Shown in pieces: positions 1,789-56,880 of a stretch of DNA of 64,000 bases (position 1 is its first letter; each line of letters starts with the position of its first letter). This stretch comes from Escherichia phage ECML-10. The position numbers and the translations under genes are program-made. The DNA lies in the sequence record OL631479.1; one strand, 5' to 3'. The notes under the pieces were generated by a model. That model saw only the letters and a list, made by a program, of their open reading frames with translations. It was not told where the DNA came from and made no database searches.

Positions 1789-2414
1789 GAGAGCGTCTAT
1801 TATCCATAGACCAGTCGTTGACACACACAGCTTGCGTTGTATGGGACGATGGAAAGCCTGTTCATAAGGTTGTGTTACGAACTCAAAGCTCATCTGCAAA
1901 AGAGAAGAAACCAGGGACGGTTTCTTTTGCAACAGCTGCTGAGCGTATTGACTGGATCTGCAAACAGGTCAGATATTATATCCACACGCACGGAGTTGAC
2001 ACCGTGGTTATGGAAGGACTTTCCTTCGGATCTCGCGGGGATGCCACACGTGAACTGGCTGGGTTGTTTTACGGTCTCGAAGTTATGCTTTGGGATGCTT
2101 TAGCTGATTGTGAAAATGACGGCCTGTTTAAGGTTCACACAGTGACACCAACAACTGCCAAAAAGTTTGCTCGTAGTCATCTTCCTGAAGAACTTGCTTT
2201 TGAGGAGAAGAAAAAGCTTGACAAAAAGACAGGTAAAGAGCATACTGTGAAGAAACCTGTTACGATGGATAAAAAGTTGATGGTTAAGGCCTGCGAAGTA
2301 TCTGAACCAGGGTTCCTAGATGGGATCAATTTGGTACAAGGTAAGGCCGATCTCGCAGATGCTTATTGGATAGGCAGGGCGCATCTGGAGGGGTTATCGC
2401 AAAGCGTAAAATAA
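1785..2414 (+). CDS. RuvC-like Holliday junction resolvase (putative)
   Basis: ATG overlaps upstream stop; N-terminal LLSIDQS, central VVMEG, C-terminal GKADLADAYWIG resemble the RuvC acidic catalytic residues. Confidence 0.5.
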   Translation: MRERLLSIDQSLTHTACVVWDDGKPVHKVVLRTQSSSAKEKKPGTVSFATAAERIDWICKQVRYYIHTHGVDTVVMEGLSFGSRGDATRELAGLFYGLEVMLWDALADCENDGLFKVHTVTPTTAKKFARSHLPEELAFEEKKKLDKKTGKEHTVKKPVTMDKKLMVKACEVSEPGFLDGINLVQGKADLADAYWIGRAHLEGLSQSVK

Positions 2415-2971
2415 GAAAGAAAGCTGTCAAAGCCCCCGTTCATAGCGGGTGGCTAAAAGATTCTAAGGACATAGCCAACTTTCGAAAAGAATTGTCAGAG
2501 GAGCAGGATGGTCTTGATCCGATCTTGTGCGAGCCACTTCGTAAGCCTTGTTTAGATCATGATCATCTGACTGGTCGTTGCAGGGGTGTTTTGTCTCAGT
2601 GCACTAATACCTTTGAGGGGTATGTGCTTAAATACTGGATGAAATACTGTAACGAGTATACAGATTGCAGTTTATCAGAGGCGTTGCGCCGGATGGCTGA
2701 CTATCTGGAGAAAGACTACAGCGACTTCCCGCTCCACAAAAACTACAGAGATGATATGACAAAGTTCTTGAGGAGATGCTCTAAAGCTACGATTATTGCA
2801 CGAGCAGAATCAGATCTCAATCTTGTCATTAATCCAGAGTGCACCAAGCATGAGGCTATTGAGTCCTACATGCAGGAGTTTATAAAGAAAACTGAGGAGA
2901 GAGATTTCTATGGGGATGAAAAAGGTATTCAATCCTTGCGACTCAGTCCTGATCAGGATGAAATACCGTAA
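2366..2971 (+). CDS. recombination endonuclease VII-like (T4 gp49 family)
   Basis: motif CLDHDHLTGRCRGVLSQCTN matches the EndoVII DHDH-TG-RG-C-N signature; start uncertain (TTG in track, overlaps upstream gene). Confidence 0.65.
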   Translation: MDRQGASGGVIAKRKIRKKAVKAPVHSGWLKDSKDIANFRKELSEEQDGLDPILCEPLRKPCLDHDHLTGRCRGVLSQCTNTFEGYVLKYWMKYCNEYTDCSLSEALRRMADYLEKDYSDFPLHKNYRDDMTKFLRRCSKATIIARAESDLNLVINPECTKHEAIESYMQEFIKKTEERDFYGDEKGIQSLRLSPDQDEIP

Positions 2972-3131
2972 CTGGAAAGGTGTTGTTGCAGATCGCTGCG
3001 TTACTGAGCCTAATTTATGGTTTGGCTCTACAGAGTATCATAAAGAAGAGCAGTGGTTGATGCATGCCTTTGATGTAGACAAGGGCGAATATCGTGACTT
3101 CGCTTTAAAAGACATTCTTCAGTTTTACTAA
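2910..3131 (+). CDS. hypothetical protein
   Basis: 73 aa ORF overlapping the 3' end of the endonuclease VII gene in another frame. Confidence 0.3.
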   Translation: MGMKKVFNPCDSVLIRMKYRNWKGVVADRCVTEPNLWFGSTEYHKEEQWLMHAFDVDKGEYRDFALKDILQFY

Positions 3132-3137
3132 GGAATT

Positions 3138-4127
3138 TTGACGATGATGGCAAAGTTAACTCTTGAGCAAATTTTAACACTAAAGCAGCAGGGATACACT
3201 AATAGACAAATTGCTCGTGAATTTTTAGGCCGTGAGTCACGTGAGAGTTGGATCCGACTACAGCTTAAACGTGCACAAGAGAATATGTCAGAGATTGTAG
3301 GAGAAGCAACGGAGCGCTTCCTTGAAGAACACAAAGGAGCTAAAGTTTGGGTGTATGATACAGAAACATCACCAACAAACGGCTGGTTCTTTGGGCACTA
3401 TAAGACCAACATTCAAACCTGCGGTATTGAAATTATGCCCTATATGCTAACTTTCGCAGGTAAGTGGTTAGACAGTCCTAGTGTGGTTGACTGCGCTCTT
3501 CCCGATTACAAAATGTGGGATGAGGATATTCACAATGACCTCGAATTGATTCAGGACTTGTGGTATTATCTGGATAAATGTGATGTCGCAGTAGCCCACA
3601 ATTCAGGTTTTGACTGTGGGTGGGCAAACCAACGATTTGCATTTCACGGGTTGCCTCCAACAAGCCCATACAAAGAGGTTGACACCCTTAAAATGATCAA
3701 GAAGGCATTCCGTTTGAATGCAAACACTTTGGAGTATGCATGCAAATACTTCCAACTTGCCAGACAGAAACTGATTGACCACACATTTGAAATGTGGATC
3801 AAGTGTGTTCATGGTGATCTTGAGGCGTTTAAACAGATGCGGGAGTACAATGTTGGTGATATCCTATCTCTGGAAGGCCTGTATTTGCTGGCACGCCCGT
3901 TTGCTAAGCAGCACCCCAACATGTCATTGTACTACCAGGATGAGGAGCCAAAAGTTCGTTGCCCACGCTGCGGTGGAGAACACCTTCACGAGGAAGAAGC
4001 TTTGGCGTATACTCAACTGAGTGCATTTAAAACATATCGCTGCGAAGGTTGTGGATCTGTTGTTCGTGACCGTAACAACATCCGTACCAGAGAAGAAATG
4101 AAAAACACCCTGATTCAGATAATCTAA
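3138..4127 (+). CDS. DnaQ-like 3'-5' exonuclease with N-terminal HTH-like segment and C-terminal CxxC zinc ribbon (putative)
   Basis: AAGGA RBS; exo-like motifs VYDTET, AVAHNSGFDCGW, YNVGD; C-terminal CPRCGG...CEGCG. Confidence 0.5.
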   Translation: MTMMAKLTLEQILTLKQQGYTNRQIAREFLGRESRESWIRLQLKRAQENMSEIVGEATERFLEEHKGAKVWVYDTETSPTNGWFFGHYKTNIQTCGIEIMPYMLTFAGKWLDSPSVVDCALPDYKMWDEDIHNDLELIQDLWYYLDKCDVAVAHNSGFDCGWANQRFAFHGLPPTSPYKEVDTLKMIKKAFRLNANTLEYACKYFQLARQKLIDHTFEMWIKCVHGDLEAFKQMREYNVGDILSLEGLYLLARPFAKQHPNMSLYYQDEEPKVRCPRCGGEHLHEEEALAYTQLSAFKTYRCEGCGSVVRDRNNIRTREEMKNTLIQII

Positions 4128-8588: not shown

Positions 8589-8819
8589 ATGAGTCATAAC
8601 TCCAAGTGGAAGGATCTTGGTTTTGCAAGTCGGTCAGAGTATGTTGGTTGGCTTTGGTTCAACGGCCTGACAAATGATATTAAAATGTATGATGATGTTT
8701 ATTATGACGAGTATACAGGCAAAATTATAAATATCTCTGTAGAAGAGGATACCTTTATCCAGCAAGATACTGATACCTGCCTTGATAAATACGTTGATGA
8801 AGTGGAGGAAGCAAATTGA
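8589..8819 (+). CDS. hypothetical acidic protein
   Basis: ATG after AAGGTGG RBS. Confidence 0.4.
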   Translation: MSHNSKWKDLGFASRSEYVGWLWFNGLTNDIKMYDDVYYDEYTGKIINISVEEDTFIQQDTDTCLDKYVDEVEEAN

Positions 8820-11131
8820 TCACCAAGGTAATTAAAAGCAACGGATGTGAAGTGGCATTCGATCCAGAACGTTTAAATAAGGCAGCTATTTTCGGTGACG
8901 ACGGTAACGGCAATTGGTCACATATTGCACTGGATGCATACAAACGACTGTATGATGGATGTACAACCAAAGAAGTTAACCAAGCTATCATAGACTCCTG
9001 TGTTAGCCGTAAAGACGAAGCACATTCCTGTATGGCTGGTCGTGTTCTTATTGGTCAGATTTATAAAGAGGCTTTTGGAGGGTTTACAAAGATCCCTTCC
9101 TTACCATCATTTTACAACGACATGGTTGAGAAAGGGTATTGGGAGGATATGGGATATAGCTTTACCGAGCTAAACACTTTAGACGCTGTTATTGACCACA
9201 GTAAAGATCTCGGTTATGGCTATGCAGTCCTTAAACAGTTTCGCGACAAATACGGGATCAAGGATACTCTTAAAGACACCTTGTTTGAATCTCCCCAGAT
9301 GATGTTTATGGGGATAGCAATGGCTGTCATGAAGAATATGCCGAAAGAACGTCGTATCAACGATGTTGTAAAATTATACACTTATCTGTCCGACTTAAAG
9401 ATCAATGCCCCGACACCGTACTTAAACGGGCTGCGCACAGGTAAGACAGGGTATGCATCTTGTTGTGTAATAAAAGCTGACGATACAGCAAAATCTATTG
9501 GTGTGGCACGTGAAGTTGCGTACACAATGACGGTTAACCAAGCAGGTATCGGCTACTATTTATCATCAAGATCTGCAGGTGATGGTGTTCGCGGTAACAC
9601 TATTAAACACATGGGTAAGATTCCATATTATCGAGGTATTGACGCTGGGGTTAAGGAGAACAGGCAACAATCACGTGGCGGTTCTGCAACAGTATCATTC
9701 CTTGCACTAGACCCGCAGATTGATGAGCTAATCCGCTTGAGAAACCCTATGACTGTTGCTTCAAAAAGAATCAACACCATGGACTACTCCATCGGTATTA
9801 ATAGGTCGTTTATCAACCGTGTGGCTAAGAATTTAGATTGGATGCTTGTTTCTTATAAGCACGCTCCTCAACTGCATGAGGGTATCTTCACCATGTCTAT
9901 GGAGGAGTTTGATGCAGAGGTTGATCGTATTGCTAAAGATGACAGTATCCCTAAAACATGGATCCGAGCCAGAGATCTTGCTGTTGAACTGATCACGCAG
10001 CGTACTGAGGTGGGAAGGCTGTATGTATACTGGACAGATGAGATGAATAGACATACACCTTTTAAAGATGTGATCTATTCAAGTAACCTGTGTGCAGAAA
10101 TAGCCCTCCCTACAAAAGGCTATTCAGATATGCGTAATATCTTCAAGTACGATGCTGATGATGGAGAGGTTGCATTGTGCTTCCTGTCATCTCTTGTAGC
10201 TGGAAGGGTTACTCCAGAGGAGTATGAGGATGTTGCATACTACACGGTGCTTATGATTGACAATGTTATGGAAATCATGACATATCCGTATGAAAATATG
10301 GAAAGCACAGTTAAAAAACGCAGATCCATCGGGGTTGGCCTTACCAATGTTGCACATTTTATTGCCAGCCACAAGGTTACTTACGGATCTCCTGAAAGTA
10401 AACAGCTTGTTCACGATCTTGCAGAACTTCACAGCTACAGCTTGCATAAGGCAAGTTTACGGTTGGCAAAAGAGCGTGGTGTCTGCGAGTGGATGCATAA
10501 AACAAAATATCCAGAAGGTTGGTTACCAATCGACACCTATAACAAAGAGGTCGATAGCGTGGTGAAAGATCCTTCTCTTAAACAGGATTGGGAAGGGTTA
10601 CGTAAAGAAATTATTGAAAATGGTGGGCTACGTAATAGCGTTCTTGAAGCATATATGCCTAATGAAAGCTCTTCGCTGGCAACAAACACCACTAACGGGG
10701 TTTATCCTGTCCGTGAGCACATTATCTTTAAAAAGTCGCCACAAGGGCAGGTGCTGTTTATCGTTCCTGACTATGATGAGTTGAAAGAGTATTACACCTC
10801 GGCTTGGGACGTTGATACTAACGACATGATCGATATGTATGCTGTGATTCAAAAATTTACAGGTCAGGCAATCAGCGCGGATTTATACATAGACTACACC
10901 AAGTTGAAAGATGGTAAAATTTCAATGAAGGAGCAGCTAGGGTACCTTATCCGTGCCACTAAATTCGGGATGAAGACATGGTATTATTTAAACTCCAGGG
11001 TTGGTGCTGGTGACTCATTGGCAGAGGAACTTCATGCCAAGAAACAGGCTGAAGATGAAACCAGAAAGAACTACCCTTTGATTGCAGATAGTTCGGTTGA
11101 AGATCCGTATTGCGAAAGTTGTGCACTATAA
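8816..11131 (+). CDS. nrdA: ribonucleotide reductase class Ia large subunit
   Basis: N-terminal ATP-cone (VIKSNGCEVAFDPERL), active-site NLCAEIALPT, 771 aa. Confidence 0.9.
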   Translation: MITKVIKSNGCEVAFDPERLNKAAIFGDDGNGNWSHIALDAYKRLYDGCTTKEVNQAIIDSCVSRKDEAHSCMAGRVLIGQIYKEAFGGFTKIPSLPSFYNDMVEKGYWEDMGYSFTELNTLDAVIDHSKDLGYGYAVLKQFRDKYGIKDTLKDTLFESPQMMFMGIAMAVMKNMPKERRINDVVKLYTYLSDLKINAPTPYLNGLRTGKTGYASCCVIKADDTAKSIGVAREVAYTMTVNQAGIGYYLSSRSAGDGVRGNTIKHMGKIPYYRGIDAGVKENRQQSRGGSATVSFLALDPQIDELIRLRNPMTVASKRINTMDYSIGINRSFINRVAKNLDWMLVSYKHAPQLHEGIFTMSMEEFDAEVDRIAKDDSIPKTWIRARDLAVELITQRTEVGRLYVYWTDEMNRHTPFKDVIYSSNLCAEIALPTKGYSDMRNIFKYDADDGEVALCFLSSLVAGRVTPEEYEDVAYYTVLMIDNVMEIMTYPYENMESTVKKRRSIGVGLTNVAHFIASHKVTYGSPESKQLVHDLAELHSYSLHKASLRLAKERGVCEWMHKTKYPEGWLPIDTYNKEVDSVVKDPSLKQDWEGLRKEIIENGGLRNSVLEAYMPNESSSLATNTTNGVYPVREHIIFKKSPQGQVLFIVPDYDELKEYYTSAWDVDTNDMIDMYAVIQKFTGQAISADLYIDYTKLKDGKISMKEQLGYLIRATKFGMKTWYYLNSRVGAGDSLAEELHAKKQAEDETRKNYPLIADSSVEDPYCESCAL

Positions 11132-11170: not shown

Positions 11171-12259
11171 ATGGCTGTATTTAATGCTGAGAACACCGCT
11201 CATAAAACTGGTGACTATCCGCTGTTTCTAGGACAGCAAATGGGTATGTATGACTCTATCAACAAAAAATATCCACAACTGTTTGAACTATACAAAAAAC
11301 AAAAAGAGCAAGATTGGGCAGAGGATGAAGTGGATTTGTCGCAATCTATTTCAGATTTTGTAACATGCTCCAAGTCAACTTATGACGTGATGGTGCAGAC
11401 CTTGATGTGGCAATGGGAGGCTGATAGCGTTGCGGCAAGATCGATCATCTGCCTCTTTTCACCATTCATCACTAATAGTGAGCTTTTCACTCTATTGATG
11501 AAACAGTCAGAGATTGAAGTTCTTCACGCACTAACTTACTCAGAGATTGTTAGACAATGCCTCCCCAATGCCCGTGAGATTATAGAAGAGATTCAGGAAA
11601 ACCAAAACGTTCTGAGCAGATCTGGCGTTATTGTCAAATACATGCAAGAGCTCGAGGTTATTGGTGCAAAATACCGACTGGATCCTTCTAGTGTTGAAGA
11701 AGATGTTGTGCGGAAATGCATTCTTAGAGCGCTTTTTGCACTTTTAGCCCTGGAAAGTATTGAGTTTATTGCAAGTTTTGCATGCACTTTCGCAGTAGCT
11801 GAACAGGGTATCTTTGTTCAGGTGGCGCAGCTTGTTCAAAAAATCATGCTTGACGAAATGCTACATTCGAAAGGTGATTTTGCCATCATTGATATCCTGC
11901 TTAATGATCCCACATGGGAGAAAAGCTTCCTTGAGATAAAGGGGGAGTTAAAAGAGATTCTTGATGAAGTACGAACCAAAGAGTACGGTTGGAGTGACTA
12001 TATTTTCAGCGAAGGAAGGGCGATTATAGGTCTTAACTCACCGTTGCTTAAAGAATGGGTTGACTATAACTGCTCACCGATTTATGATTACTACGACATC
12101 GACAAAGACTTTGTGCCGCCAACAAAGGACCCGCTACCGTTTATGCAGGTGTGGATGAAACCTTCATTGCAACAGACGGCGAACCAAGAAATGTCGAACA
12201 CTGACTACCGCGTCAACACAACTGTTAACGACGCTGAAGAAGAAATTTGGGAGTTTTAA
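11171..12259 (+). CDS. nrdB: ribonucleotide reductase class Ia small subunit
   Basis: 362 aa directly after nrdA; diiron-ligand-like E..H segments (LDEMLHSKGDF). Confidence 0.85.
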   Translation: MAVFNAENTAHKTGDYPLFLGQQMGMYDSINKKYPQLFELYKKQKEQDWAEDEVDLSQSISDFVTCSKSTYDVMVQTLMWQWEADSVAARSIICLFSPFITNSELFTLLMKQSEIEVLHALTYSEIVRQCLPNAREIIEEIQENQNVLSRSGVIVKYMQELEVIGAKYRLDPSSVEEDVVRKCILRALFALLALESIEFIASFACTFAVAEQGIFVQVAQLVQKIMLDEMLHSKGDFAIIDILLNDPTWEKSFLEIKGELKEILDEVRTKEYGWSDYIFSEGRAIIGLNSPLLKEWVDYNCSPIYDYYDIDKDFVPPTKDPLPFMQVWMKPSLQQTANQEMSNTDYRVNTTVNDAEEEIWEF

Positions 12260-12262
12260 TAT

Positions 12263-12541
12263 ATGAGCTGCGAAAAATCTTTTTTCATCATCATTTACGG
12301 TAAGGATAACTGCCCACATTGTGTCAGAGCAAAAGAATTTGCAATCAGCAAAGGTCTGCCTTTTGTATATAAGACACTTGGCGAGGGCTACACAAAAGAA
12401 GAGCTTATTGAGAAGTGTAGTCCAATCGTCCCCCGAACGTTGCCGCAGATCTTCTTAGAAAGCGATCTTGACAGTATCCATATAGGCGGTGCCGACGATT
12501 TCATCTCTTTTGTTAAGAATGGTTTTGGAGAGAAAAAGTGA
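12263..12541 (+). CDS. glutaredoxin/thioredoxin-like redoxin (NrdH/NrdC-like)
   Basis: CPHC active-site motif near N-terminus, 92 aa, between nrdB and nrdD. Confidence 0.6.
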   Translation: MSCEKSFFIIIYGKDNCPHCVRAKEFAISKGLPFVYKTLGEGYTKEELIEKCSPIVPRTLPQIFLESDLDSIHIGGADDFISFVKNGFGEKK

Positions 12542-13398
12542 AAGTTGTAAAACGGGACGGTAGAGAAGAGTTCTATAACGGAATTAAGGTGATCAAGGCG
12601 GCAGAGTCCGCCTTATTTGAGTCTGGACATACTGAAGAAGAAGCTTACCGGATCGCCTGCGAGGTTAATGAAGTTGTTGCTAACAATCTACCAACCGACC
12701 AGTGCACGATCTCTGTAAAAAATATCCATATCCTTGTTGAAGACGCTCTTATGGATATGGGTTTAAAATGTGCAGCCAGAGAATACATCCAGTATAGGCA
12801 GACAAGAGATAATAACAGAGAGGCAGGTGGAAAACTGCTCGCAGATATTAGTGGCTTCTTGGATCGCACTTGTGATGAATTTACAAAAGAAAACGCAAAT
12901 AAGCCTACCAATCATGTACACACTCATCGTGACCTGCTTGCAGGCATCCTTAGCAAACACCTTGCATCAACACAGATCCTGCCAGACCGTGTCTCAGAAG
13001 AGCACAATAAAGGCTTCATCCATGTGCATGATCTTGACTACTTGATCAGTCCGTTAACAAACTGTTGTTTGGTAAATTATCCAGATATGTTGGAAAACGG
13101 ATTCAACATTGGTAACGCCCATGTCAGTAAGCCGAAGTCAATAGGGGTTGCAACAACAATCCTTAGCCAAATCTCTAGTGCGGTAGCTAGTGCTCAATAT
13201 GGGGGTCAGACTATGAGCCATATTGATCATTATCTGGCACAGTATGCTGAAGCGACCTATGAGAAGAACCTTAAATTTTGCCAGGAACATTGGTTGCCAG
13301 ATGCTGAGACTGTTGCAATGCAAATGACAGATAAAGACGTATTTGACAGTATGCAGACATTACTTTATCAAATCAACACGTTAACCTCTGTCAACGGT
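12538..13398 (+). CDS. nrdD: anaerobic ribonucleotide reductase, exon 1
   Basis: GTG start overlapping upstream stop; ATP-cone N-terminus; ORF closes with a stop immediately after ...TSVNG, which continues in frame after the intron. Confidence 0.8.
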
Positions 13399-14195
13399 TA
13401 ACAAACTGGCCGTTGTAAAACTCTCCTAACCTCATAAGAGGGGTCGGTAAATCCGGCTAACGGGGAACGCTAAGGCGAAAGCTATGCCAATCCCGTGACT
13501 AGTTCTTACAGGAGTTGGAACGGTTGTAACGACTAACGAAAGGCAGAGATGCTTGACAAACATTTCTGAACCAAGTAGTGTAGGGGTTAGTTGAAATACT
13601 AACTTCGAAATGGAGAGGCTCTATGAAAAAGATCATTCTTAATGGTGAAGAATCAAACTATGTGATTGATGAGGTTGGAAACGTATACGGAAAACGTGGA
13701 ATGCTACACCCAATATTGTGGGGAGGTTATGGAAAAGGTAACAAGCATGTTAAACGCCGTTATATGTACTCTTTCAACCACAAAGGTAAAAAGATTCGAA
13801 TCCAAACCTCAAGGATTGTTGCCTTGTATTGTTTGCCGGATGTCCCAGAAGACCCTGAAAACTGGGAAGTGAATCATAAAGATGGCAATACATTGAATGA
13901 TCATCCGTCTAACCTAGAGTGGGTTTTGCCGGAAGATAATAAGAGACATGCTTTCCGAACAGGACTTTGTCCAGGTAAGTGCTATAGGAAAGTGCAGGCA
14001 TACAAAGGGAAAACCTTGGTGGGTGAATATCCTTCACTCTATGCCTGTGCAAAAGCCTTAAATTTGAACGTAGGTAACGTTCATAGGGCTATCGAAGGAA
14101 ATGCCGAAGGTAAGCATCTCACAATAAAGGGTTATTATCTTATTGAAGTAGAGTAAGAGATAGTCTGGCCCTGTGGAAACACAGGGAGGAGACAG
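13399..14195 (+). mobile_element. group I intron in nrdD carrying an HNH homing endonuclease ORF
   Basis: about 800 nt between nrdD halves; exon 1 ends in U, intron ends in G; fused junction reads TSVNG|QTPFITLSLG; structured non-coding flanks around the endonuclease ORF; boundaries approximate. Confidence 0.6.
13623..14156 (+). CDS. HNH homing endonuclease (intron-encoded)
   Basis: GGAGAGG RBS; motif WEVNHKDGNTLNDHPSNLEWVLPEDN typical of HNH family. Confidence 0.8.
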   Translation: MKKIILNGEESNYVIDEVGNVYGKRGMLHPILWGGYGKGNKHVKRRYMYSFNHKGKKIRIQTSRIVALYCLPDVPEDPENWEVNHKDGNTLNDHPSNLEWVLPEDNKRHAFRTGLCPGKCYRKVQAYKGKTLVGEYPSLYACAKALNLNVGNVHRAIEGNAEGKHLTIKGYYLIEVE

Positions 14196-15458
14196 CAGAC
14201 TCCATTCATCACATTAAGTTTAGGACTGGATACCTCGGTCTTTGGTAGAATGATTACCAAAAACTACTTGAAAGTCCACAAAATGGGTCTTGGTGAAGAA
14301 CGTATCACACCTGTGTTCCCTAAAGTGCTGTTCTTCCTAGAAGAGGGTGTCAACATGAACCCTGGAGATCCTAACTATGATTTGAAACGATTAGCTCTGG
14401 AATGCTCTGCAGAGCGGATTTATCCTGACTTTGTTTCTGTTCCACTAAATCGTAAAGTGACAGGCTCGACAGATGGTAAAGTAACGAGCATGGGTTGCCG
14501 GAGTTTTCTTAGCAAATACAATGACTTGGAAACAGGCGAGGAGAAATACCTTGGTAGATTTAACTTAGGCGTTGTTAGCCTTAACCTGCCAATGATTGCG
14601 GCAAAAGCTAAGACGGAAGGTGTTGATTTCTTTGCCGTTCTTGACGAGTATCTGGATTTGGCATATGAAGCTCACCTTGTAAGGGTTAACCGTCTGAAAG
14701 GCACCAAAGCAGGGCAGAACCCTATCATGTGGTGTGAAGGCGCTCTTGCTCGCCTGGATCCTGAAGAGAGTATTGATAAACTCTTCTATGACGGGTACGC
14801 TTCCATCAGTATTGGGTATATTGGTGTGTATGAAACCTGTCAGATTTTGGGCAGGGAGGGTGACAAGGCTTTAGCTCTTGGAATACTTCAGCACATGAGA
14901 GATGCTTGTGAGCGATACAAGAAGGAAAGTAGACTAGCGTTTAGCTTGTACGGCACCCCTTCTGAGAGTCTATGCTATAAAGCTGCAACCTGTCTGGATC
15001 GTGAATATCCTGAAGTGTTGAAGCACGAGCATGAATATCTCACCAACAGTTTCCATCAGCCAGTATGGATCAATAGCTCTCCTTTTGATAAGTGGGAGTA
15101 TGAGGAAGGTTTTGCTATGATCTCCTCTGGTGGCAACATCGGATACGTAGAGACACCAAATCTGAAAAACAACTTAGATGCTTTGGAAGCTCTTGTTGAT
15201 TTCGGATATAAACACATTATGTATTTTGGTATCAACCAGCCTGTGGATAAATGTCTCAAGTGTGGTTTCTCTGGTGAGTTCAGTGCAACAGCTAAAGGCT
15301 TTGTATGCCCAGAGTGCGGAAACCATGAAGAGGGAACGATCAGCGTAATTCGACGTGTGTCTGGATACCTTTCCAGTCCTAACTCTCGTCCTTACAATAA
15401 AGGTAAGCAAGCGGAAGTTATCGAGCGAGTTAAGCACTACGGAAGTTGTGGTTGCTGA
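14196..15458 (+). CDS. nrdD: anaerobic ribonucleotide reductase, exon 2
   Basis: C-terminal zinc ribbon CLKCG...CPECG and glycyl-radical motif RRVSGY; exon start inferred from reading-frame continuity. Confidence 0.8.
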   Translation, partial: QTPFITLSLGLDTSVFGRMITKNYLKVHKMGLGEERITPVFPKVLFFLEEGVNMNPGDPNYDLKRLALECSAERIYPDFVSVPLNRKVTGSTDGKVTSMGCRSFLSKYNDLETGEEKYLGRFNLGVVSLNLPMIAAKAKTEGVDFFAVLDEYLDLAYEAHLVRVNRLKGTKAGQNPIMWCEGALARLDPEESIDKLFYDGYASISIGYIGVYETCQILGREGDKALALGILQHMRDACERYKKESRLAFSLYGTPSESLCYKAATCLDREYPEVLKHEHEYLTNSFHQPVWINSSPFDKWEYEEGFAMISSGGNIGYVETPNLKNNLDALEALVDFGYKHIMYFGINQPVDKCLKCGFSGEFSATAKGFVCPECGNHEEGTISVIRRVSGYLSSPNSRPYNKGKQAEVIERVKHYGSCGC

Positions 15459-15524: not shown

Positions 15525-16652
15525 GTGTCCAGAAAACTTACAACAGATGAGTTTATAAAGAGGGCAAAAGCAGTTCATGGAGATAAGTATGATTACTCTA
15601 AGGTTGAGTATGTAAATGCCTGCACCAAGGTTATAATTATCTGCCCATATCATGGAGAATTTGAACAAGCTACCCACCAACACCTTGCAGGACGAGGCTG
15701 CCGGGAATGTGGAAAGCTAAAAATGGCACAAAGCCACATTATACCACATAAGGAGTGGTTGAATGTTATCCAAGAGGTCAATCCTTATGTCGAAGTGATT
15801 GGAGAAATAATAAGCTGCAGAACAAAAGTGCCGTGCCGCTGCAAAATTTGCAGTCATGAATGGTCAGCAATGCCTTATCTTCTTAAACAAGGACATGGGT
15901 GCCCTAGATGCGGCAAGCTAAAATTCGCACAAAGCAGAGCTATAGCCCATACCGAGTGGGTCGAGGACATAACGAAGAAAAATACATATATTGAAATAGT
16001 AGAAAGGGTTAAAAATAGCGATACACCAGTATTGGCACGATGCAAAATTTGTAGTCATGAATGGTTAGCAAGACCATCCCATCTTAAACGAGGGCATGGG
16101 TGCCCTAGATGTAAAGGCAATGCAAAGAGATCCCATGTGGAATGGGTAGGGCATATAAAGGTTGTCAATCCAAGTATTAAAGTGCTTGGAAAAATTAAAA
16201 ACGGCAGTGCAAAAGTATTATGTAGGTGTAAGATTTGTGATTATGAATGGTCTCCTGCTCCTATTAGGCTCAAGCAAGGACATGGGTGCCCTAGATGTGC
16301 TAACTACGGCTTTTTATCGTACAATCACGGCAAACTTTACATTATGGTTGATGACTTAGAAGTACCAACACTTATGAAGATCGGTATTAGCGTCAGTGTC
16401 GAAGAGAGAAAAGATAGGATATTGAAAAGTGCCAAAAGGGCAGGGGTAGGTATTTATGATCTCTACCTGGCGAAAACGTGGGAAGGATCAACTCAAAACA
16501 TGGCAGATTTAGAAAAATCTGTGCATAAGGCCTTCAGCAAGTATAAAATAAACTTCCCTGTAAAATTTGATGGTAGCACAGAATTCTTCTACTACAGGCC
16601 TGAAGTGTTTGACACGGTGGAAGAAGTATACAGGAAGATTTGTGGTAAATGA
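15525..16652 (+). CDS. zinc-ribbon repeat protein with C-terminal T5orf172/GIY-YIG-like domain (putative freestanding homing endonuclease)
   Basis: GTG start; four repeats of C-x-I-C-x-H/Y-EW...GHGCPRC; C-terminus YIMVDD...KIGIS...TEFFY. Confidence 0.5.
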   Translation: MSRKLTTDEFIKRAKAVHGDKYDYSKVEYVNACTKVIIICPYHGEFEQATHQHLAGRGCRECGKLKMAQSHIIPHKEWLNVIQEVNPYVEVIGEIISCRTKVPCRCKICSHEWSAMPYLLKQGHGCPRCGKLKFAQSRAIAHTEWVEDITKKNTYIEIVERVKNSDTPVLARCKICSHEWLARPSHLKRGHGCPRCKGNAKRSHVEWVGHIKVVNPSIKVLGKIKNGSAKVLCRCKICDYEWSPAPIRLKQGHGCPRCANYGFLSYNHGKLYIMVDDLEVPTLMKIGISVSVEERKDRILKSAKRAGVGIYDLYLAKTWEGSTQNMADLEKSVHKAFSKYKINFPVKFDGSTEFFYYRPEVFDTVEEVYRKICGK

Positions 16653-16704: not shown

Positions 16705-16821
16705 ATGTCATCGGGTATCTATAAAATCTGCAAGTGCGGTTGTCATTGTAATCTTCGTTGGTGCAAGGCACTGGACGATTTTATTTGGCATTGCCCTAAA
16801 TGTGATGCGGAGTATCTATGA
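16705..16821 (+). CDS. small Cys-rich protein (38 aa)
   Basis: strong AAGGAGG RBS; CKCGCHCN...HCPKCD; stop overlaps nrdG start (ATGA). Confidence 0.4.
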   Translation: MSSGIYKICKCGCHCNLRWCKALDDFIWHCPKCDAEYL

Positions 16822-17291
16822 ACATTGCCGGATACACAGAAATATCTTACACCGAAGGGCCAGGTATTAGAACTGCCTTATGGGTATCTGGGTGCCCACA
16901 CGCCTGCCCTGGTTGCTTTAATCAGGCATTTTGGTCAAAAGATAAAGGAAGAGAGTTCACTGAAGAAGACTTGCAAAAAATCTTGTCAGATTTAGATAAC
17001 CCGTCTGTGTGCGGTATCTCTCTGCTGGGTGGAGAACCCTTAGCATACTATAATGAGCCAGATATTATTAACCTGATGGAGAAAATTAAGGAAAAATTTG
17101 GTGACAAGAAAACTATTCTTGTATATACTGGGTTCACATTTGACCATATCTCTAGCGATGTTCTTAAACTGGCTGATATCATCATTGACGGTAAGTATGT
17201 AAAAGATTTACCAACCAAGAAACCGTTCCGAGGTAGCGATAACCAAAGAATGTTTAAAAAAGTATCAGGCGGTTGGGTTCAGGTAGACTAG
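16818..17291 (+). CDS. nrdG: anaerobic ribonucleotide reductase activating protein
   Basis: radical-SAM cluster motif CPHACPGC near N-terminus, 157 aa, adjacent to nrdD. Confidence 0.8.
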   Translation: MNIAGYTEISYTEGPGIRTALWVSGCPHACPGCFNQAFWSKDKGREFTEEDLQKILSDLDNPSVCGISLLGGEPLAYYNEPDIINLMEKIKEKFGDKKTILVYTGFTFDHISSDVLKLADIIIDGKYVKDLPTKKPFRGSDNQRMFKKVSGGWVQVD

Positions 17292-53259: not shown

Positions 53260-53613
53260 TTAGTGACAATCACCCCAATTACGACCACACAAGTATTCAC
53301 CTGTGATCTGGAACGGGACTCCCATCATTTTAGAAGCTTGCCAGAAGCAATGTACCACCATTTCGCCCACAGGACTCCAGATAAGTTCAAGCTTTCCGTC
53401 ATCGTTCAGGATAGGATCGTACACCGTGTTTCCGTCTCTGTCAACCACTTCGTTTCCGTTTTCATCCTTGCGTGCCTTTTTGTACTTATGACCGTCAAAC
53501 ACATGAAGTTTGGCCTCCTGCTCTGCCTTAAATGCTTCCAATTCTTCAATTGTGTCGAAGGTGTACACAGTCTTATACTTAGGCGTGTCAGGAACCTGAA
53601 GTTGGTACTCATC
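53260..53613 (-). CDS. family A DNA polymerase, exon 2 (C-terminal segment)
   Basis: begins DEYQLQV and ends GRNWGDCH, matching the recalled T7 gp5 C-terminus after the HDE motif (HDEIQV ... ends in CH). Confidence 0.7.
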   Translation of the reverse strand, partial: DEYQLQVPDTPKYKTVYTFDTIEELEAFKAEQEAKLHVFDGHKYKKARKDENGNEVVDRDGNTVYDPILNDDGKLELIWSPVGEMVVHCFWQASKMMGVPFQITGEYLCGRNWGDCH

Positions 53614-54456
53614 CATCTGTTCAGGTAGGTCGTTAAGCTACCCCGCACCATTACGTGCATAGCCATACAGTTTCCTGTATGGATCGGACTACCTCACTGC
53701 CTTGGTAACAAGGCACCTCCCATTTCGACCGCACTTGCTGGCCTACTCTACTCGCTTCTTCACACCAACCTGTGTTGGAGCTATGCTTTCGATAGTCTCT
53801 GAACGTTACTACCAGGTGTAGTTTTTAGAGATATGTTTCCACTGTCTTCTTTGCTTTATAGCCCTGACGGTCTCATAAGGATATCCAAGATCCCTAATCT
53901 CGCATTGTCGTAGACCACTCTGCAACAGTTCGCAAATCTCTATTACCTCATCTTCTGTCAGCACAGCGTTGGCATTATACTCACCAACTGGCCTTACTCT
54001 GAGGTCATTATCATAGGCGTGCTTGATATTTCCACCAGGGGTGGTCCATTCCAGGTTCCAGTATGCATTGTTGTACTTATTCCCATCCTTATGGTTCACC
54101 CATGTGAGCCTTTCAGGATCTGGGTTTGATACAAAGCATTCAGCAACCAGGTGGTGGACACCTTTTGTGCACTGCTTCCCCTCGATTAGCATGGTTACGC
54201 AAAGGTAACCTCTACCATTATCAAAACAAAACATTGTTGTATGATCACGTTTCGATAAAGGTATTGTTCCATCATCAAACACGGTATACCCGTGATAATC
54301 AGCTGTTCTAGCCATTTTAACTACACCCCTTTAGTCTTCGCTGCGGATTAGCATATTGAGCTTTTACCATACTCAGGTGTAAAAGTCAACTTAGCTTTCC
54401 CGTCAATTAAAGAGGTTATTCGACATAGATCACTCTATGAAGCCACAATGTTATTT
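53614..54456 (-). mobile_element. group I intron in the DNA polymerase gene carrying an HNH homing endonuclease ORF
   Basis: exon 1 ends ...IIYYH then K-stop, exon 2 starts DE: the insertion sits inside the HDE motif; exon 1 ends in U and intron ends in G on the coding strand; about 840 nt. Confidence 0.65.
53809..54315 (-). CDS. HNH homing endonuclease (intron-encoded)
   Basis: motifs GVHHLVAECF and WVNHKDGNKYNNAYWNLEW typical of the HNH family. Confidence 0.8.
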   Translation of the reverse strand: MARTADYHGYTVFDDGTIPLSKRDHTTMFCFDNGRGYLCVTMLIEGKQCTKGVHHLVAECFVSNPDPERLTWVNHKDGNKYNNAYWNLEWTTPGGNIKHAYDNDLRVRPVGEYNANAVLTEDEVIEICELLQSGLRQCEIRDLGYPYETVRAIKQRRQWKHISKNYTW

Positions 54457-56880
54457 ATGGTAATAGATAATACGACGAACACCTTCATCGTACCACCCAC
54501 GCTTCACCATTTGGTGGTGCATAAGTATCCCAACCAAGTCACACAGCGATGCACCACCATTCTGTTGGTATGCATTAAGTAAAGAGTGTTTAGATCGGGT
54601 CCAGATGGCATGACCATCAAAAGAGTAGATAAACTTCTTACCCGTTGCTTCCCAGAATTTCTCCAGATCCTCTTTACGGCCCTTAAGACCAGGGTTGGCA
54701 TCCCAAAGCGCATCGATTACCCTTTGTCCCAACTCTGGAGAGATGTCCAGCATATCTGCAACTTTATCTTTTTGTGCCCCGTACATAACCCCATACGTGA
54801 TAGGTTTACCGTCGTTACGGGACACCTCTCTGCCTGCTACTTTTGTATATGCCTCAGCATTGTTTTGGTGTGCGTCTCCGTTACTTACAACATCGTAATA
54901 CAGGCCGTTGTCGAACTCAAAGGCACCCCAAGCCCCGATAAGCTGCTCTAAGTTGGACCCGTCGATACCGATCTCAAAGTATCCTGGAGGAACACCCCAC
55001 AAGCTACGCATCTCTTTACCCATAACCACTTTAGGAGAGGGTTTAGGCATGTTTGCACAAATACTGTGTTTCTGTCTGGAAGTGTTTGTTAATCCAGAGC
55101 TTTTAGCAGGAAGCTTATGGTCAATCTTCAAACGTGGGTGATTAAGAAGACCAGTGTCAACCTTATCCTCCTTGATTGGATCAAGTACCGATCTGCGGTT
55201 TCGCAATGATAACCATAAGACGATATCTTTAGCCATCTCTCCGTTCAATTTTTCAAGATTCGGACACAGGTGTCCAAACGTATCTTTCAGTTGCGGAGAA
55301 GTAATAAGTGCCCTAGCTTTTCTACGTATTTTCCCGAATACTTCCTTTTTAATCCTTTCGGAGTTAGGAAAGCTTCGGAACTTGTGCACGGTTGTCTGGA
55401 ACTTAGCATCAGTTTTGTTCCAGAAGTTGATAATTAGGTCACAATACTCTGACTCCAAAAGCTCGTCCATATATGCATATACTCGTGCATCAACATCTGC
55501 ATCAGGTAAAGCTTTCTTCTTGCTGTCTTTAGTTACATCCTTAGTTCTCCACATTGTCGGAAGCCAACCAGCACTGATCAGGTATCGCTTAATGTCGTCC
55601 TGATTGCTGATTTTCATAGGTATCTTGCAGTCCGGCATTCGCTTCTGCTGTAGATCACTTATTGCCTGATCCATTAGCTCTTTAGGTAAAGGTTGTGGTG
55701 TGGAGGTGCCCTTAATATAGCCTCTCAAGAAATCAGCCATCTTATCGTGGTCTTTGCAGCCCATCTCTTCACACCATTTTATCCCCATCTTACTGACATC
55801 TCCTGTAGAGGTAAATGCTCGCTTAGGTGGGGCTTTGAACTCTAAAGCACTCATGTCCACAGGATAGCCAAGCTTATCTTTTAACCATTTCCAACCATTA
55901 TTAGAGATTGTCCCATCTTGGTTAAACGGCTTTTCAGGGAACTTGGGCCGCTGAGACATTGACAGCTCTTTTAAAGGCAGTTGTGGTTCAACACGATCAG
56001 CGATTTCTTTCATCCACGCATCGCAACGGTCACGTAAAGCAATAGCTCCATCTATGTCGAAGTATACACCCTGACGGGCCTGCAGCTCCATCAGGAAGTG
56101 CTGCAACATGCCTCGACGTAATGCGTTCTTCCAGGTGATCTTCTTGAACCCTTTCGGCTTCTCTTTGGCAGGATCGTACATAAAGTTCTGCATGTCAGAT
56201 TTGCCGTAGAATACACCTTTTGATTCCGCTACCAGCTCTTTCCAGAGCAGCTCCTGGATGATAACGTCCTCAAATACACGATCCACATACTTCCATAACG
56301 GAAGATCGCGCCAGTCATCAATTTGAACTTTCTGGTTACCAAGGGCGTAGCCCCATGCCATAAGGCCGTGAGGACCAACAGGCTGCATTTTCTTAGTAAC
56401 CGGGTTGAATACAGAGTCCGGACAACCTTTTGGTAAAGGGCGATCAGGCCACAAGATTCGGCTCATCGCCAACGTATCAAACAGGTTAACCTGGTGATCG
56501 TTGATAGTCCCCATACATTTAGGATCACGGAACATATCAAAATGAATACCAGATAATCTTTCCATCAGCATAAAGTCATAACTGTAGCAGTTATGGCAGT
56601 TCAAAGCTGTTGGTGACCAGTCAGAATTTCCTGTAAGCCAACCTTCCAACTCTGAAAAATCTGCTATGCGAACTTCAAAATCTTTATAAAGAGTTTTCTT
56701 TGCCAGAATGAAGTTCTTAGCCTTTTCTATATCCTCCTCGGAGTAGTGTGTGCGGTCATTTAGAGGAAGGAACAGCATAAAACGGTTCTTATTCAGCTCT
56801 TTAAACAGGCCGCAGTGATAATAAAGATCTAGGTCTTCTAGTAAACCAGAGGCCTCAAGGTCGAAAGACCACATACTCAT
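54457..56880 (-). CDS. family A DNA polymerase, exon 1 (3'-5' exonuclease and most of the polymerase domain)
   Basis: AAGGAGAAC RBS; N-terminal exo motif FDLEASGL; motif-B-like RNDGKPITYGVMYGAQ; reading frame stops one codon after the H of HDE. Confidence 0.8.

Follow-up and report, generated by a model that had tools for sequence, protein, structure and literature searches.

A probable T4-type group I intron with an I-HmuI-like HNH endonuclease in the nrdD gene of Escherichia phage ECML-10

The nrdD gene of Escherichia phage ECML-10, a Vequintavirus (rV5-like coliphage), codes for the anaerobic ribonucleotide reductase and raises the question of whether a coding sequence that is broken by 797 nt can still yield a single protein. 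In the window, by which we mean the whole 64,000-nt stretch of OL631479.1 analyzed here, the nrdD frame has a GTG start at 12538, reads through to ...TSVNG, and meets an in-frame TAA (13399-13401) right after GGT; coding for the NrdD family restarts at 14196 with CAG ACT CCA TTC (QTPF). Exon 1 (12538-13398, on the plus strand, as are all features below unless stated otherwise) has 287 codons, the last of them GGT (Gly), and encodes the ATP-cone and the N-terminal part of NRDD. Exon 2 (14196-15458) has 420 codons plus the stop and encodes NRDD 156-562, with the glycyl-radical domain. The reading frames and the 2 halves of the Pfam NRDD profile (positions 1-154 in exon 1, 156-562 in exon 2) agree with the original prediction that nrdD stops after ...TSVNG and resumes about 800 nt later, and the fused 707-aa NrdD gives a single unbroken NRDD match (1-562, E 4.7e-161). 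We conclude that the intervening bases (13399-14195), which open with the in-frame UAA and close with a terminal G (omega G) at 14195, are very probably a T4-type self-splicing group I intron with an I-HmuI-like HNH homing endonuclease, splicing being predicted from sequence.

The boundaries of the insertion can be read from relatives that lack it. Exon 1 is collinear with intronless alleles, and with a 600-nt fused-exon query the intronless Vequintavirus alleles align in one piece, reading AACGGG/CAAACT where ECML-10 has AACGGT/797 nt/CAGACT. The codons at the junction are GGG/CAA in 6 of 6 empty alleles, GGT and CAG in all 9 HNH-intron copies (the window and 8 relatives), and GGT and CAA in both of the 2 ORF-less intron alleles; base -1 is U in every intron-bearing allele and G in every empty one. 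Since the empty alleles have G there, placement at 13398-14194 fits the DNA comparison too, and we chose 13399-14195 because group I rules need a U before the 5' splice site and a G as the last intron base. All other intron lineages at this site also end in G, and the NrdD protein is identical under either placement. Splicing after U13398 and G14195, as originally predicted, is thus indicated by the intronless alleles together with the U·G pair of P1 described below. The intronless target around the insertion site reads AACGGGCAAACT. The fused-exon junction in ECML-10 would read ...GUCAACGGU followed by CAGACUCCA.

At the protein level, the junction had been expected to lie in a conserved NrdD segment, and the fused product indeed aligns with T4 NrdD (1H78) without a gap over residues 159-324, with the junction at Gly190/Gln191, where T4 NrdD reads ...SSNG/QTPFVT. 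A distant NrdD in the PDB, 8P23, has ...GGNQVVFSS at this position. The exons of EI-SP-GF differ from those of the window at 163 nucleotides, with only 16 amino-acid differences and 0 stop codons; we consider that the exons remain under purifying selection in intron-bearing genomes.

The RNA of the insert can be drawn with 75 pairs in a group I architecture consisting of P1, P3 to P9, the P3/P7 pseudoknot, P7.1/P7.2, and the terminal G14195. Covariation was assessed in 10 sequences from about 7 lineages, all at the same nrdD site, and the count was also run in a 7-sequence version. With the 10 sequences, the paired fraction of cells is 95.8% (34-50% with partners slid), and both-side changes occur at 31 pairs (2-10 with partners slid); 0 of 500 shuffles reached any of the 5 covariation measures. 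When whole introns minus their ORFs were aligned with MAFFT, the ORF-less forms were misplaced between P7.1 and P8, and P7.1 and P8 interior sequence was taken out of the alignment before pair counting. The long P1 loop of lineage L031 and the P9 of L025 and L031 remain misaligned in the final set, which slightly lowers the paired percentages. The intron folds with z = -5.9 (0/200 shuffles fold equally well), and unconstrained folds recover the same P1, long-range P3, P4-P6, P7.2, P8, and P9 in 6 of the 7 copies folded, the AlexBoehm copy being the one that folds differently.

P1 (13392-13415) pairs the exon end and first intron bases (13392-13400) with an internal guide (13407-13415). Within this 9-bp helix, U13398·G13409 marks the 5' splice site and is invariant in 10/10 sequences, and the pair between exon position -7 and the guide varies by lineage (C-G, A-U, U-A, or U·G). 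The P3 5' strand, CUCUCC (13421-13426), pairs with GGAGAG (13612-13617) and is 100% paired, 3 of its 6 pairs changing on both sides. Rfam places P3 of CM1, which has an ORF-less intron, on the strand beside J3/4; this version is mismatched in CM1 and is unable to form in the window, and CUCUCC/GGAGAG was preferred. Between the P3 5' strand and J3/4 (UAA, 13458-60) lie 2 small hairpins (13430-33/13438-41 and 13443-47/13453-57, together 13430-13457), which are present in 10/10 sequences and both show compensatory changes. P3 adjoins J3/4 with no hairpins in between in the T4 td, nrdD, and nrdB introns, and T4, Twort, and Azoarcus introns are not known to carry a peripheral element there. The IA2 pattern of a P3 5' strand directly before J3/4 and P4 does not occur in the ECML-10 nrdD intron.

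P4 (13460-65/13491-96, with J4/5 = AA) leads into P5 (13469-76/13481-87), which has a GAAA loop and an internal loop, GCUAAG/UAUGC, that we take to resemble the 11-nt tetraloop receptor. The P4/P5 motif UAACGGGGAAC...CAAUCCCGUG is common to T4 td and Listeria/Bacillus phage introns. In P6 (13498-13506 with 13517-13524), 4 pairs change on both sides. The P7 5' strand, A-C(bulge)-GACUA (13529-13535), pairs with 14161-14166. It is invariant in 10/10 sequences, with AACGACUA identical in T4 td and nrdD, and P7 is without covariation support because it never varies. Its G13531-C14165 pair stands at the position of the guanosine-binding site.

The P7.1 hairpin (13542-13572) and the 9-bp P7.2 hairpin (13583-13606; 100% paired, 7/9 pairs changing on both sides) are followed by CGAAAU and then the P3 3' strand, which doubles as the Shine-Dalgarno of the HNH ORF. 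The P8 5' strand, CUCUAU (13619-13624), contains the AU of the start codon and pairs with 14148-14153; 6/7 P8 pairs change on both sides, even though one strand contains the start codon and the other the last ORF codons. From 14148 to 14166 run the P8 3' strand (14148-53), J8/7 (UAAGAGA, 14154-60), whose UAA is the stop codon of the HNH ORF, and the P7 3' strand (14161-66). This segment aligns to the Rfam consensus AAGAUAUAGUC, and AAGAGAUAGUCU is invariant across lineages. P9 (14169-14186) has a GAAA loop and 5/7 pairs that change on both sides. The 3' splice site is spanned by a 4-bp hairpin (14188-14203) that pairs GGAG (14188-91) with exon CUCC (14200-03) and whose covariation tracks the exon codons (ACU CCA, ACC CCU, UGC CCA, and ACG CCA). 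For P10, the window sequence allows 3 bp (CAG/CUG), but other lineages have 2 bp or none, and we do not claim this helix.

The core, comprising the P3-P8 and P4-P6 domains, the P3/P7 pseudoknot, J4/5, J8/7, and the P7 G-C by the bulge, is therefore present. In the classification of Michel and Westhof, subgroup IA2 is defined by P7.1 and P7.2 between P7 and the P3 3' strand. The P7.1/P7.2 order and the linker motifs match those of T4 td and nrdD, which indicates that the architecture is td/nrdD-like (IA2). Structure, covariation, and core-motif homology to T4 td and nrdD together uphold the earlier call of a group I intron.

The group I intron model search that had been suggested as a check does not confirm the intron by itself. 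At the gathering threshold, Rfam returned no match in the whole 64-kb window, and both of its introns appear only in permissive mode. Intron_gpI (RF00028) aligned to the full length of the window intron with 27.7 bits (E 7e-5) against a gathering score of 50, and to the full length of the ORF-less CM1 intron with 29.3 bits (E 9e-6), also below 50. It is the only Rfam family at E<0.05 in the 64 kb, matching the nrdD intron and the other window intron. Among controls run with the same tool, T4 nrdD scored 105.3 bits and T4 td 40.3 (below threshold), and the T4 nrdB intron was not detected by Intron_gpI at E<=1. Since td and nrdB also fail, the threshold misses proven phage introns of the type seen in ECML-10 nrdD. 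Searches by blastn (word 7) and nhmmer with the ORF-deleted intron and CM1 against the T4 td/nrdB and nrdD regions gave nothing at E<=1, so the link to T4 introns is through short motifs and shared architecture. The core motifs that recur in td and nrdD in unchanged order are UAA-CGGGGAA, CAAUCCCGU, AACGACUA, GUA-GGG, CGAAAC with P3', AAGAGAUAGUCUG, and P9. A pattern scan of IMG/VR for the core of this intron family matched 2 contigs only, so the family looks rare in that collection.

The P8 loop is filled by an HNH homing-endonuclease ORF of 177 aa (13623-14156). It scores 29.3 bits against Pfam HNH_3 (cut-off 24.8) and matches phrog_59 with E 1.5e-26. Searched as a profile against the PDB, it has 1U3E (I-HmuI) as the sole match (E 5.1e-11, query 8-161 to target 8-159 of 174). 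The Pfam I-HmuI NUMOD-like domain taken singly gives 18.4, below its cut-off of 27. The intron-borne HNH endonuclease of the original prediction is thus recovered by HNH_3 and by a full-length profile match to I-HmuI, which makes it I-HmuI-like. N84, H85, N97, N106, and H109 are invariant in the alignment of the endonuclease family, H109 lying outside the I-HmuI residue match, and the counterpart of I-HmuI Asp74 is Asn84 in every family member. Compared with FV3, the ORF shows 15 synonymous and 2 non-synonymous differences; we conclude from sequence comparison that it is intact and under purifying selection.

Among relatives, the nrdD site occurs in 3 states: empty, with an ORF-less 257-nt intron, and with the HNH intron. 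The ORF-less introns, of 257 nt and 277 nt, keep the whole core with a short P8 hairpin, and their lineages are flanked by clustered synonymous exon changes. Intron identity is 99.0-100% versus 93-99.7% in the flanking 300 nt of exon; in FV3, the intron is 97.2% and the flanks 94% identical. One intron is found in at least 3 exon haplotypes that also occur empty (EI-SP-GF/ECP26, FV3/SYGMH1, and phita32/O157tp5). This near-identity of the intron across exon backgrounds 2-7% apart indicates recent homing, and the presence or absence of the intron at one exact site, together with its being more uniform than its flanks, marks it as a mobile intron. Heavy homing-element traffic in the window, also originally predicted, is borne out by a second intron, group-I-like and bearing an HNH ORF, in the DNA polymerase gene (about 53617-54456, minus strand) and by a T5orf172 ORF between nrdD and nrdG that is a polymorphic insertion.

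The same evidence bears on whether the insert is spliced out at all. A free-standing HNH gene could have split nrdD into 2 polypeptides that assemble with no splicing, as in the NrdA/mobE precedent of Aeromonas phage Aeh1 (PMC2988022, PMC7344957), and many GenBank records do list 2 separate NrdD CDSs and an HNH gene; the Rfam intron model being under threshold also fits. We consider this very unlikely, because the ORF is surrounded by about 260 nt of conserved non-coding RNA, whose 31 both-side pair changes take in a helix that exon 1 forms with the insert, and because ORF-less versions retain all of the conserved RNA. The division of alleles by the -1 base, U with the intron and G without, also speaks against a split gene. 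The exon-2 frame, moreover, is without ATG, GTG, or TTG from the stop at 14154 to 14250, and a separate second NrdD polypeptide would lose the conserved QTPFITLSLGLDTSVFGR for want of a start codon before 14250.

There is likewise little chance that a decayed, non-splicing intron has left nrdD a pseudogene. NrdD might be dispensable given the aerobic class Ia NrdAB, whose NrdA and NrdB are encoded intact immediately upstream, and the related phage CB7 has an HNH-containing insertion that is unspliced in RT-PCR (PMC7344957). Decay is hard to reconcile, however, with a U·G pair, J4/5, P7 G-C and bulge, J8/7, and terminal G that are intact and invariant across lineages, with stop-free exons that change almost only at synonymous sites, or with an intact endonuclease ORF under purifying selection. 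Phage ribonucleotide reductase genes often harbor inteins or are split (PMC3653736), but the insert cannot be an intein because it has an in-frame stop at its start and its ORF is preceded by 224 nt of non-coding RNA. For a group II intron, reverse transcriptase is lacking and Rfam gives no group II match at E<=10. The ORF encodes an HNH nuclease such as group I introns carry, and the sequence refutes both of these other intervening elements.

With self-splicing by a group I intron as the preferred reading, the last exon bases would pair with the internal guide in P1 and set U13398 opposite G13409. Free guanosine bound at the P7 site would attack after U13398, and the freed exon end would then attack after the terminal G14195. 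Joining of the exons would give ...TSVNG-QTPFITLSLG... in a normal 707-aa NrdD. By analogy with I-HmuI, we expect that the 177-aa HNH protein would nick or cut the intronless nrdD of co-infecting relatives near the insertion site and that recombinational repair would copy the intron into the cut allele. ORF-less intron lineages may be endonuclease-resistant occupants of the site.

An additional question is how the endonuclease would be expressed. Its Shine-Dalgarno context, GGAGAGGCUCUAUG, has 6 nt between GGAG and AUG, and since the Shine-Dalgarno is the P3 3' strand, the ribosome-binding site would be buried in the folded pre-mRNA. TTGACA (13553-13558), followed after 17 nt by TAGTGT (13576-13581), is a candidate for an internal promoter that would drive the endonuclease gene. 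Every ORF-bearing lineage has TTGACA in the P7.1 loop, though the stem differs, and ORF-less introns lack it; this correlation with ORF presence is the sole basis of the promoter idea. A promoter scan did not report TTGACA-N17-TAGTGT, because the TAGTGT -10 matches at only 3/6 positions. Read as a sigma-70-like promoter, it would place the -35 element within the P7.1 loop and the -10 element within the conserved J7.1/7.2, and the transcript would start inside P7.2. This may yield a shorter transcript with a free Shine-Dalgarno, as in T4 introns, which is the weakest step of the proposal; such a transcript would be translatable because it is without the P3 partner strand. Endonuclease expression would then be switched by transcript length, the Shine-Dalgarno being locked in P3 in the full pre-mRNA. 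T4 introns have ribosome-binding sites buried in long transcripts and use internal promoters (PMC2988022). We suggest only tentatively that the ECML-10 intron is a structural and regulatory variant of the T4 type, with P3-J3/4 hairpins, a length-switched endonuclease, and immune ORF-less lineages.

The nrdD intron is an ordinary mobile element that is already annotated in public phage records. BASEL GenBank records give nrdD as a joined CDS. WalterGehring (Bas51, MZ501111) has a 100% identical intron, and its record joins the nrdD CDS from two pieces that flank a 'putative homing endonuclease'; FV3 (NC_019517) and other GenBank records carry the element. According to the BASEL paper, comparative annotation was used to place intron boundaries (PMC8594841). 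Existing joined-CDS records are silent on RNA structure, subgroup, splice evidence, and site comparison, and most other GenBank records have 2 NrdD fragments with the intron unmentioned. Apart from one sentence in the BASEL methods, we found no description of the nrdD intron in the literature on rV5, FV3, Vequintavirus, and nrdD; the only introns that the rV5 paper describes are in the terminase gene. For annotation, the analysis means that NrdD in ECML-10 and about 40 related GenBank records would be one 707-aa protein and not 2 fragments and a stray HNH gene, and that the Rfam group I model is unreliable for phage introns with an ORF-interrupted core. It also points to a second, separate nrdD intron site, 32 nt from the classical T4 site and used in several phage groups, and to a homing-cycle series of empty, ORF-less, and ORF-bearing sites in near-identical genomes infecting E. 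coli K-12. The known workings of such elements are left unchanged.

The T4 nrdD (sunY) intron with I-TevII is likewise in nrdD, in the same conserved N-terminal barrel part, and begins with an in-frame UAA. It shares the 5' plan of P1, UAAAA, and the P3 5' strand with no P2, as well as the core motifs and the order P7, P7.1, P7.2, P3', P8, P7', P9. Its insertion site, after the first base of Tyr180, corresponds to window position 13366, and the ECML-10 site is 32 nt downstream. Its ORF is of the GIY-YIG type and lies after the core, whereas the ECML-10 ORF is HNH and lies in the P8 loop. The Rfam scores of the 2 introns (105 versus 27.7 bits) differ, and similarity is undetectable by blastn/nhmmer. 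The closest core strings are those of T4 td (I-TevI), namely UAAACGGGGAAC, CAAUCCCGUG, AACGACUA, GUAGGG, CGAAAC with P3', and GAGAUAUAGUCUG with P9, and td at 40.3 bits falls below the Rfam threshold because an ORF interrupts its core, as in ECML-10. The td intron differs in lying in the thymidylate synthase gene, in having a GIY-YIG ORF in the P6 loop and a P2, and in internal promoters of T4 middle/late types, whereas the ECML-10 candidate is sigma-70-like.

HNH endonucleases in group I introns of ribonucleotide reductase genes are also known from the T4/RB3 nrdB intron (I-TevIII) and the nrdE introns of Staphylococcus phage Twort (PMC2988022, PMC3653736), in reductase subunits and at sites other than those of ECML-10. 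I-TevIII is described as having a zinc finger and acting as a dimer (PMC1865063). The T4 nrdB intron has an ordinary P2 and P3-J3/4 arrangement, unlike the ECML-10 intron. I-HmuI (1U3E), from the DNA-polymerase group I intron of Bacillus phage SPO1, is the same kind of protein (174 versus 177 aa), and its His75, Asn87, and Asn96 correspond to His85, Asn97, and Asn106 in the ECML-10 protein. It is a nicking enzyme that cuts intron-bearing DNA as well (PMC2988022). I-HmuI differs from the ECML-10 endonuclease in its host gene and phage group, in sequence (about 25% identity), and in having Asp74 in place of Asn84.

The ECML-10 segment at 8800-17300 matches about 150 phage records at 93-99% identity, nearly all of them from Vequintavirus (rV5-like coliphages). 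It carries nrdA (8816-11131), nrdB (11171-12259), a glutaredoxin gene (12263-12541), nrdD exon 1 (12538-13398), an insert (13399-14195), nrdD exon 2 (14196-15458), a T5orf172/zinc-ribbon ORF (15525-16652), and nrdG (16818-17291). That ORF, of 375 aa and annotated through phrog_559/681 as "endonuclease," is a polymorphic free-standing insertion, since the relative FV3 has only 158 nt at its position and about 1.2 kb is missing there from most relatives. Several matching GenBank records (MG0656xx, e.g., MG065655) are labeled "Campylobacter phage" with Campylobacter jejuni as host, and are 96-99% identical here to Escherichia coli Vequintavirus; one contains the nrdD intron, 99.5% identical. The host assignment looks questionable.

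As originally predicted, the nrdD frame breaks after ...TSVNG, with a TAA directly 3' of GGT (13396-13398), and similarity to the NrdD family restarts at CAG 14196. Exon 1 covers positions 1-154 of the Pfam NRDD profile and exon 2 covers 156-562, while the fused protein gives a single-piece match over 1-562 (E 4.7e-161). The fused product also aligns without gaps across the junction to T4 NrdD (PDB 1H78) and two more solved NrdDs; T4 NrdD reads ...YEVNTLFSSNG/QTPFVTITFG here (slash, junction), placing the junction at Gly190/Gln191 in T4 numbering. Searching Vequintavirus genomes with 300 nt of each exon joined into a 600-nt query returned three kinds of allele: empty sites, matched over all 600 nt without a break, and two kinds of occupied site, at which 797 nt or 257 nt separate the halves of the match. 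The junction reads AACGGG/CAAACT in all 6 empty alleles examined, AACGGT/.../CAGACT in all 9 alleles carrying the 797-nt form (those of the window and of eight relatives), and AACGGT/.../CAAACC in both copies of the 257-nt form. A group I intron requires U before its 5' splice site and has G as its last base, and these junctions show the required T (U) in every occupied allele and a G in every empty one. Boundaries one base further left are also compatible with the DNA comparison alone and yield an identical protein; 13399-14195 was chosen because of the U-before and G-last rules. The predicted splicing after U13398 and G14195 thus agrees with both the intronless alleles and the group I end rules.

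The proposal of structured RNA around the ORF is borne out by folding, as the sequence with the ORF interior deleted folds with z = -5.9, a stability that none of 200 shuffles equals. Unconstrained minimum-free-energy folds of seven sequences (the window, FV3, three metagenomic relatives, and two ORF-less copies) share one architecture in six cases, the ORF-less copy of phage AlexBoehm giving a different fold. P1 pairs 13392-13400 with 13407-13415 and includes U13398·G13409. P3 (13421-26 with 13612-17) is followed by two small hairpins (13430-41 and 13443-57), J3/4 (UAA), P4 (13460-65 with 13491-96), P5 (13469-87, with a GAAA loop and a tetraloop-receptor-like GCUAAG/UAUGC internal loop), and P6 (13498-13524). 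P7 (13529-35 with 14161-66) forms a pseudoknot with P3, and its G13531-C14165 pair adjoins a bulged C13530. P7.1 (13542-72), P7.2 (13583-13606), P8 (13619-24 with 14148-53), J8/7 (UAAGAGA), and P9 (14169-86, GAAA loop) lead to the terminal G at 14195.

Relatives of the endonuclease at 52-87% identity pointed to metagenomic contigs with related introns (loci L020, L021/L022, L025, L029, L031, and the 3' part in L023), which lie at exactly the same NG/Q codon boundary in more distant NrdD genes. A pattern scan found two further ORF-less copies (L027, L028). Across 10 core sequences, standard pairs fill 95.8% of cells, falling to 34-50% once partners are slid by 1-3 columns; both sides change in 31 of 75 pairs, versus 2-10 in the slid controls; and none of 500 shuffles reached any of five measures. 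A count was also made on seven sequences. Given that the sequences share ancestry and that one of them supplied the structure, the fairer measures are the slid controls and pair-type counts, both of which are also clearly exceeded. The P1 exon-guide pair covaries (CG, AU, UA, UG), P3 is 100% paired, and both-side changes occur in three of its pairs, 7 of 9 pairs of P7.2, 6 of 7 of P8, and 5 of 7 of P9. P7 is invariant in the sequences compared, so covariation speaks neither for nor against it. Architecture, covariation, and a T4 td/nrdD-like helix order together argue for the predicted group I intron.

The group I model search suggested with the prediction gave full model alignments but missed the gathering score (27.7 versus 50 bits), and Rfam at gathering thresholds had no match in the 64-kb window. 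In permissive mode, the only matches below E 0.05 in the window were two to Intron_gpI, with no other family: the nrdD intron and a minus-strand segment, 53664-54466 (29.1 bits). The ORF-less intron of phage CM1 aligned over the full length of the model (29.3 bits, E 9e-6). Among T4 controls, the nrdD intron scored 105.3 bits and td 40.3, below the 50-bit threshold, while nrdB was undetected at E<=1. Since td and nrdB fail, the model fails on proven phage introns of this type, and the missed threshold weakens formal Rfam membership while leaving the structural case unaffected.

The predicted HNH endonuclease was recovered as an ORF at 13623-14156 (177 aa; Pfam HNH_3, phrog_59). The single sequence matches I-HmuI (PDB 1U3E, 174 aa) at E 2.7e-4, and a profile of eight family members does so at E 5.1e-11 (residues 8-161 versus 8-159), with no other PDB match. 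His75, Asn87, and Asn96 of I-HmuI, which together with Asp74 reportedly have assigned roles in its structure, correspond to invariant His85, Asn97, and Asn106 of the family; the Asp74 position is Asn84 in every member. Fifteen synonymous versus 2 non-synonymous differences from FV3 indicate that the ORF is under purifying selection. It exactly fills the P8 loop: the AU of its AUG lies within the P8 5' strand, its last two codons are the P8 3' strand, and its UAA stop opens J8/7. Its Shine-Dalgarno, GGAGAG, is the P3 3' strand.

A second group-I-like intron (insert ~53617-54456) splits the family-A DNA polymerase gene (53260-56880, minus strand), with splice sites read by eye only, after U54457 and G53617. 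The product of its 168-aa HNH ORF (53809-54315, phrog_59) and the nrdD-intron enzyme share 42% identity across the HNH motif. In two phages of Gram-positive hosts, Listeria phage LP-114 (L007, 1480-2200) and Bacillus phage S4-2 (L006, 1440-1600), DNA-polymerase introns share the P4-P5 block (ACGGGGAA-GCUAAG...UAYGCCAAUCCCGUG) with the nrdD intron at 85-88% identity, but carry their HNH ORFs in another loop, P6.

Of the intron copies compared, those in six phages match the copy in the window at 99.0-100% identity and that of FV3 matches it at 97.2%; the flanking exons (300 nt each side) are 93-99.7% identical. According to a variable-site table, at least three exon haplotypes occur both empty and with the same intron, the filled and empty members being EI-SP-GF and ECP26, FV3 and SYGMH1, and phita32 and O157 typing phage 5. 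Near the junction, members of a pair differ only at -1, +3, and once also +6, as expected if homing has been repeated and recent, with very short co-conversion tracts. Exons of intron-bearing genomes show 163 nucleotide versus 16 amino-acid differences and no stop codons; this almost exclusively synonymous change argues for a still-functional nrdD and, by extension, for removal of the intron. Across the shared core, the ORF-less 257-nt lineage has diverged by 14%; synonymous exon changes cluster around its intron (TCG GTA AAC GGT / CAA ACC CCT TTT), and its guide sequence has changed to match.

The nrdD intron has already been recognized at the level of annotation. WalterGehring (MZ501111) has an identical intron, and its record already gives the surrounding nrdD CDS as a join of two pieces, with a "putative homing endonuclease"; nrdD of AlexBoehm is likewise a join; the BASEL paper set intron boundaries by comparative annotation (PMC8594841). 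Most other records list two NrdD fragments plus an HNH or hypothetical gene. Our literature search found no paper describing the ECML-10-type nrdD intron: the rV5 genome paper reports introns in the terminase gene only (PMC3606486), and a survey of split phage reductase genes did not include this phage group (PMC3653736). Judged from sequence, the insert is an ordinary mobile group I intron of a familiar phage type, with splicing and endonuclease activity predicted, and the original prediction was correct in both observation and interpretation.

Sequence-only searches of the intron against T4 introns gave no match, and the likeness lies in organization. As read in the T4 genome, its td and nrdD introns have the same order of P7, P7.1, P7.2, P3', P8, and P7' and share the linker strings AACGACUA, GUA-GGG, CGAAAC, and AAGAGAUAGUCUG; the T4 nrdD intron likewise passes from P1 through UAAAA directly into the P3 5' strand, without P2. 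It is inserted after the first base of the Tyr180 codon, corresponding to window 13366, so the ECML-10 intron lies 32 nt downstream of the T4 site. Other Vequintavirus genomes (L011 from JEP1, 2407-3156; L010, L016, L017) have a further HNH-containing insertion ~310 nt into exon 2, adjoining the MGCRSF (active-site cysteine) codons and equivalent to ~14500 of the window, which lacks it, and L021/L022 have another after residue ~171. Phages therefore have at least four separate occupied sites in nrdD.

We infer three departures from the T4 pattern: a hairpin pair, a possible promoter with TTGACA, and a splice-site hairpin. T4 td, nrdD, and nrdB have nothing between the P3 5' strand and J3/4, whereas the ECML-10 intron has two covarying hairpins there (13430-13457). 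The 3' splice site lies within a 4-bp hairpin (14188-14203) whose exon strand varies with the codons; in four lineages the intron strand changes accordingly. Finally, the P7.1 loop contains TTGACA (13553-58), with TAGTGT (13576-81) after a 17-nt spacer, a pair that may serve the endonuclease gene as an internal promoter. A promoter scan did not call this pair; TTGACA is retained in every ORF-bearing lineage despite changes in the stem and is absent from ORF-less lineages. A transcript started there would lack the P3 5' strand, which would leave the Shine-Dalgarno free. In T4 intron endonucleases, ribosome-binding sites are buried and promoters are internal (PMC2988022), an arrangement that the proposed transcript would mirror.
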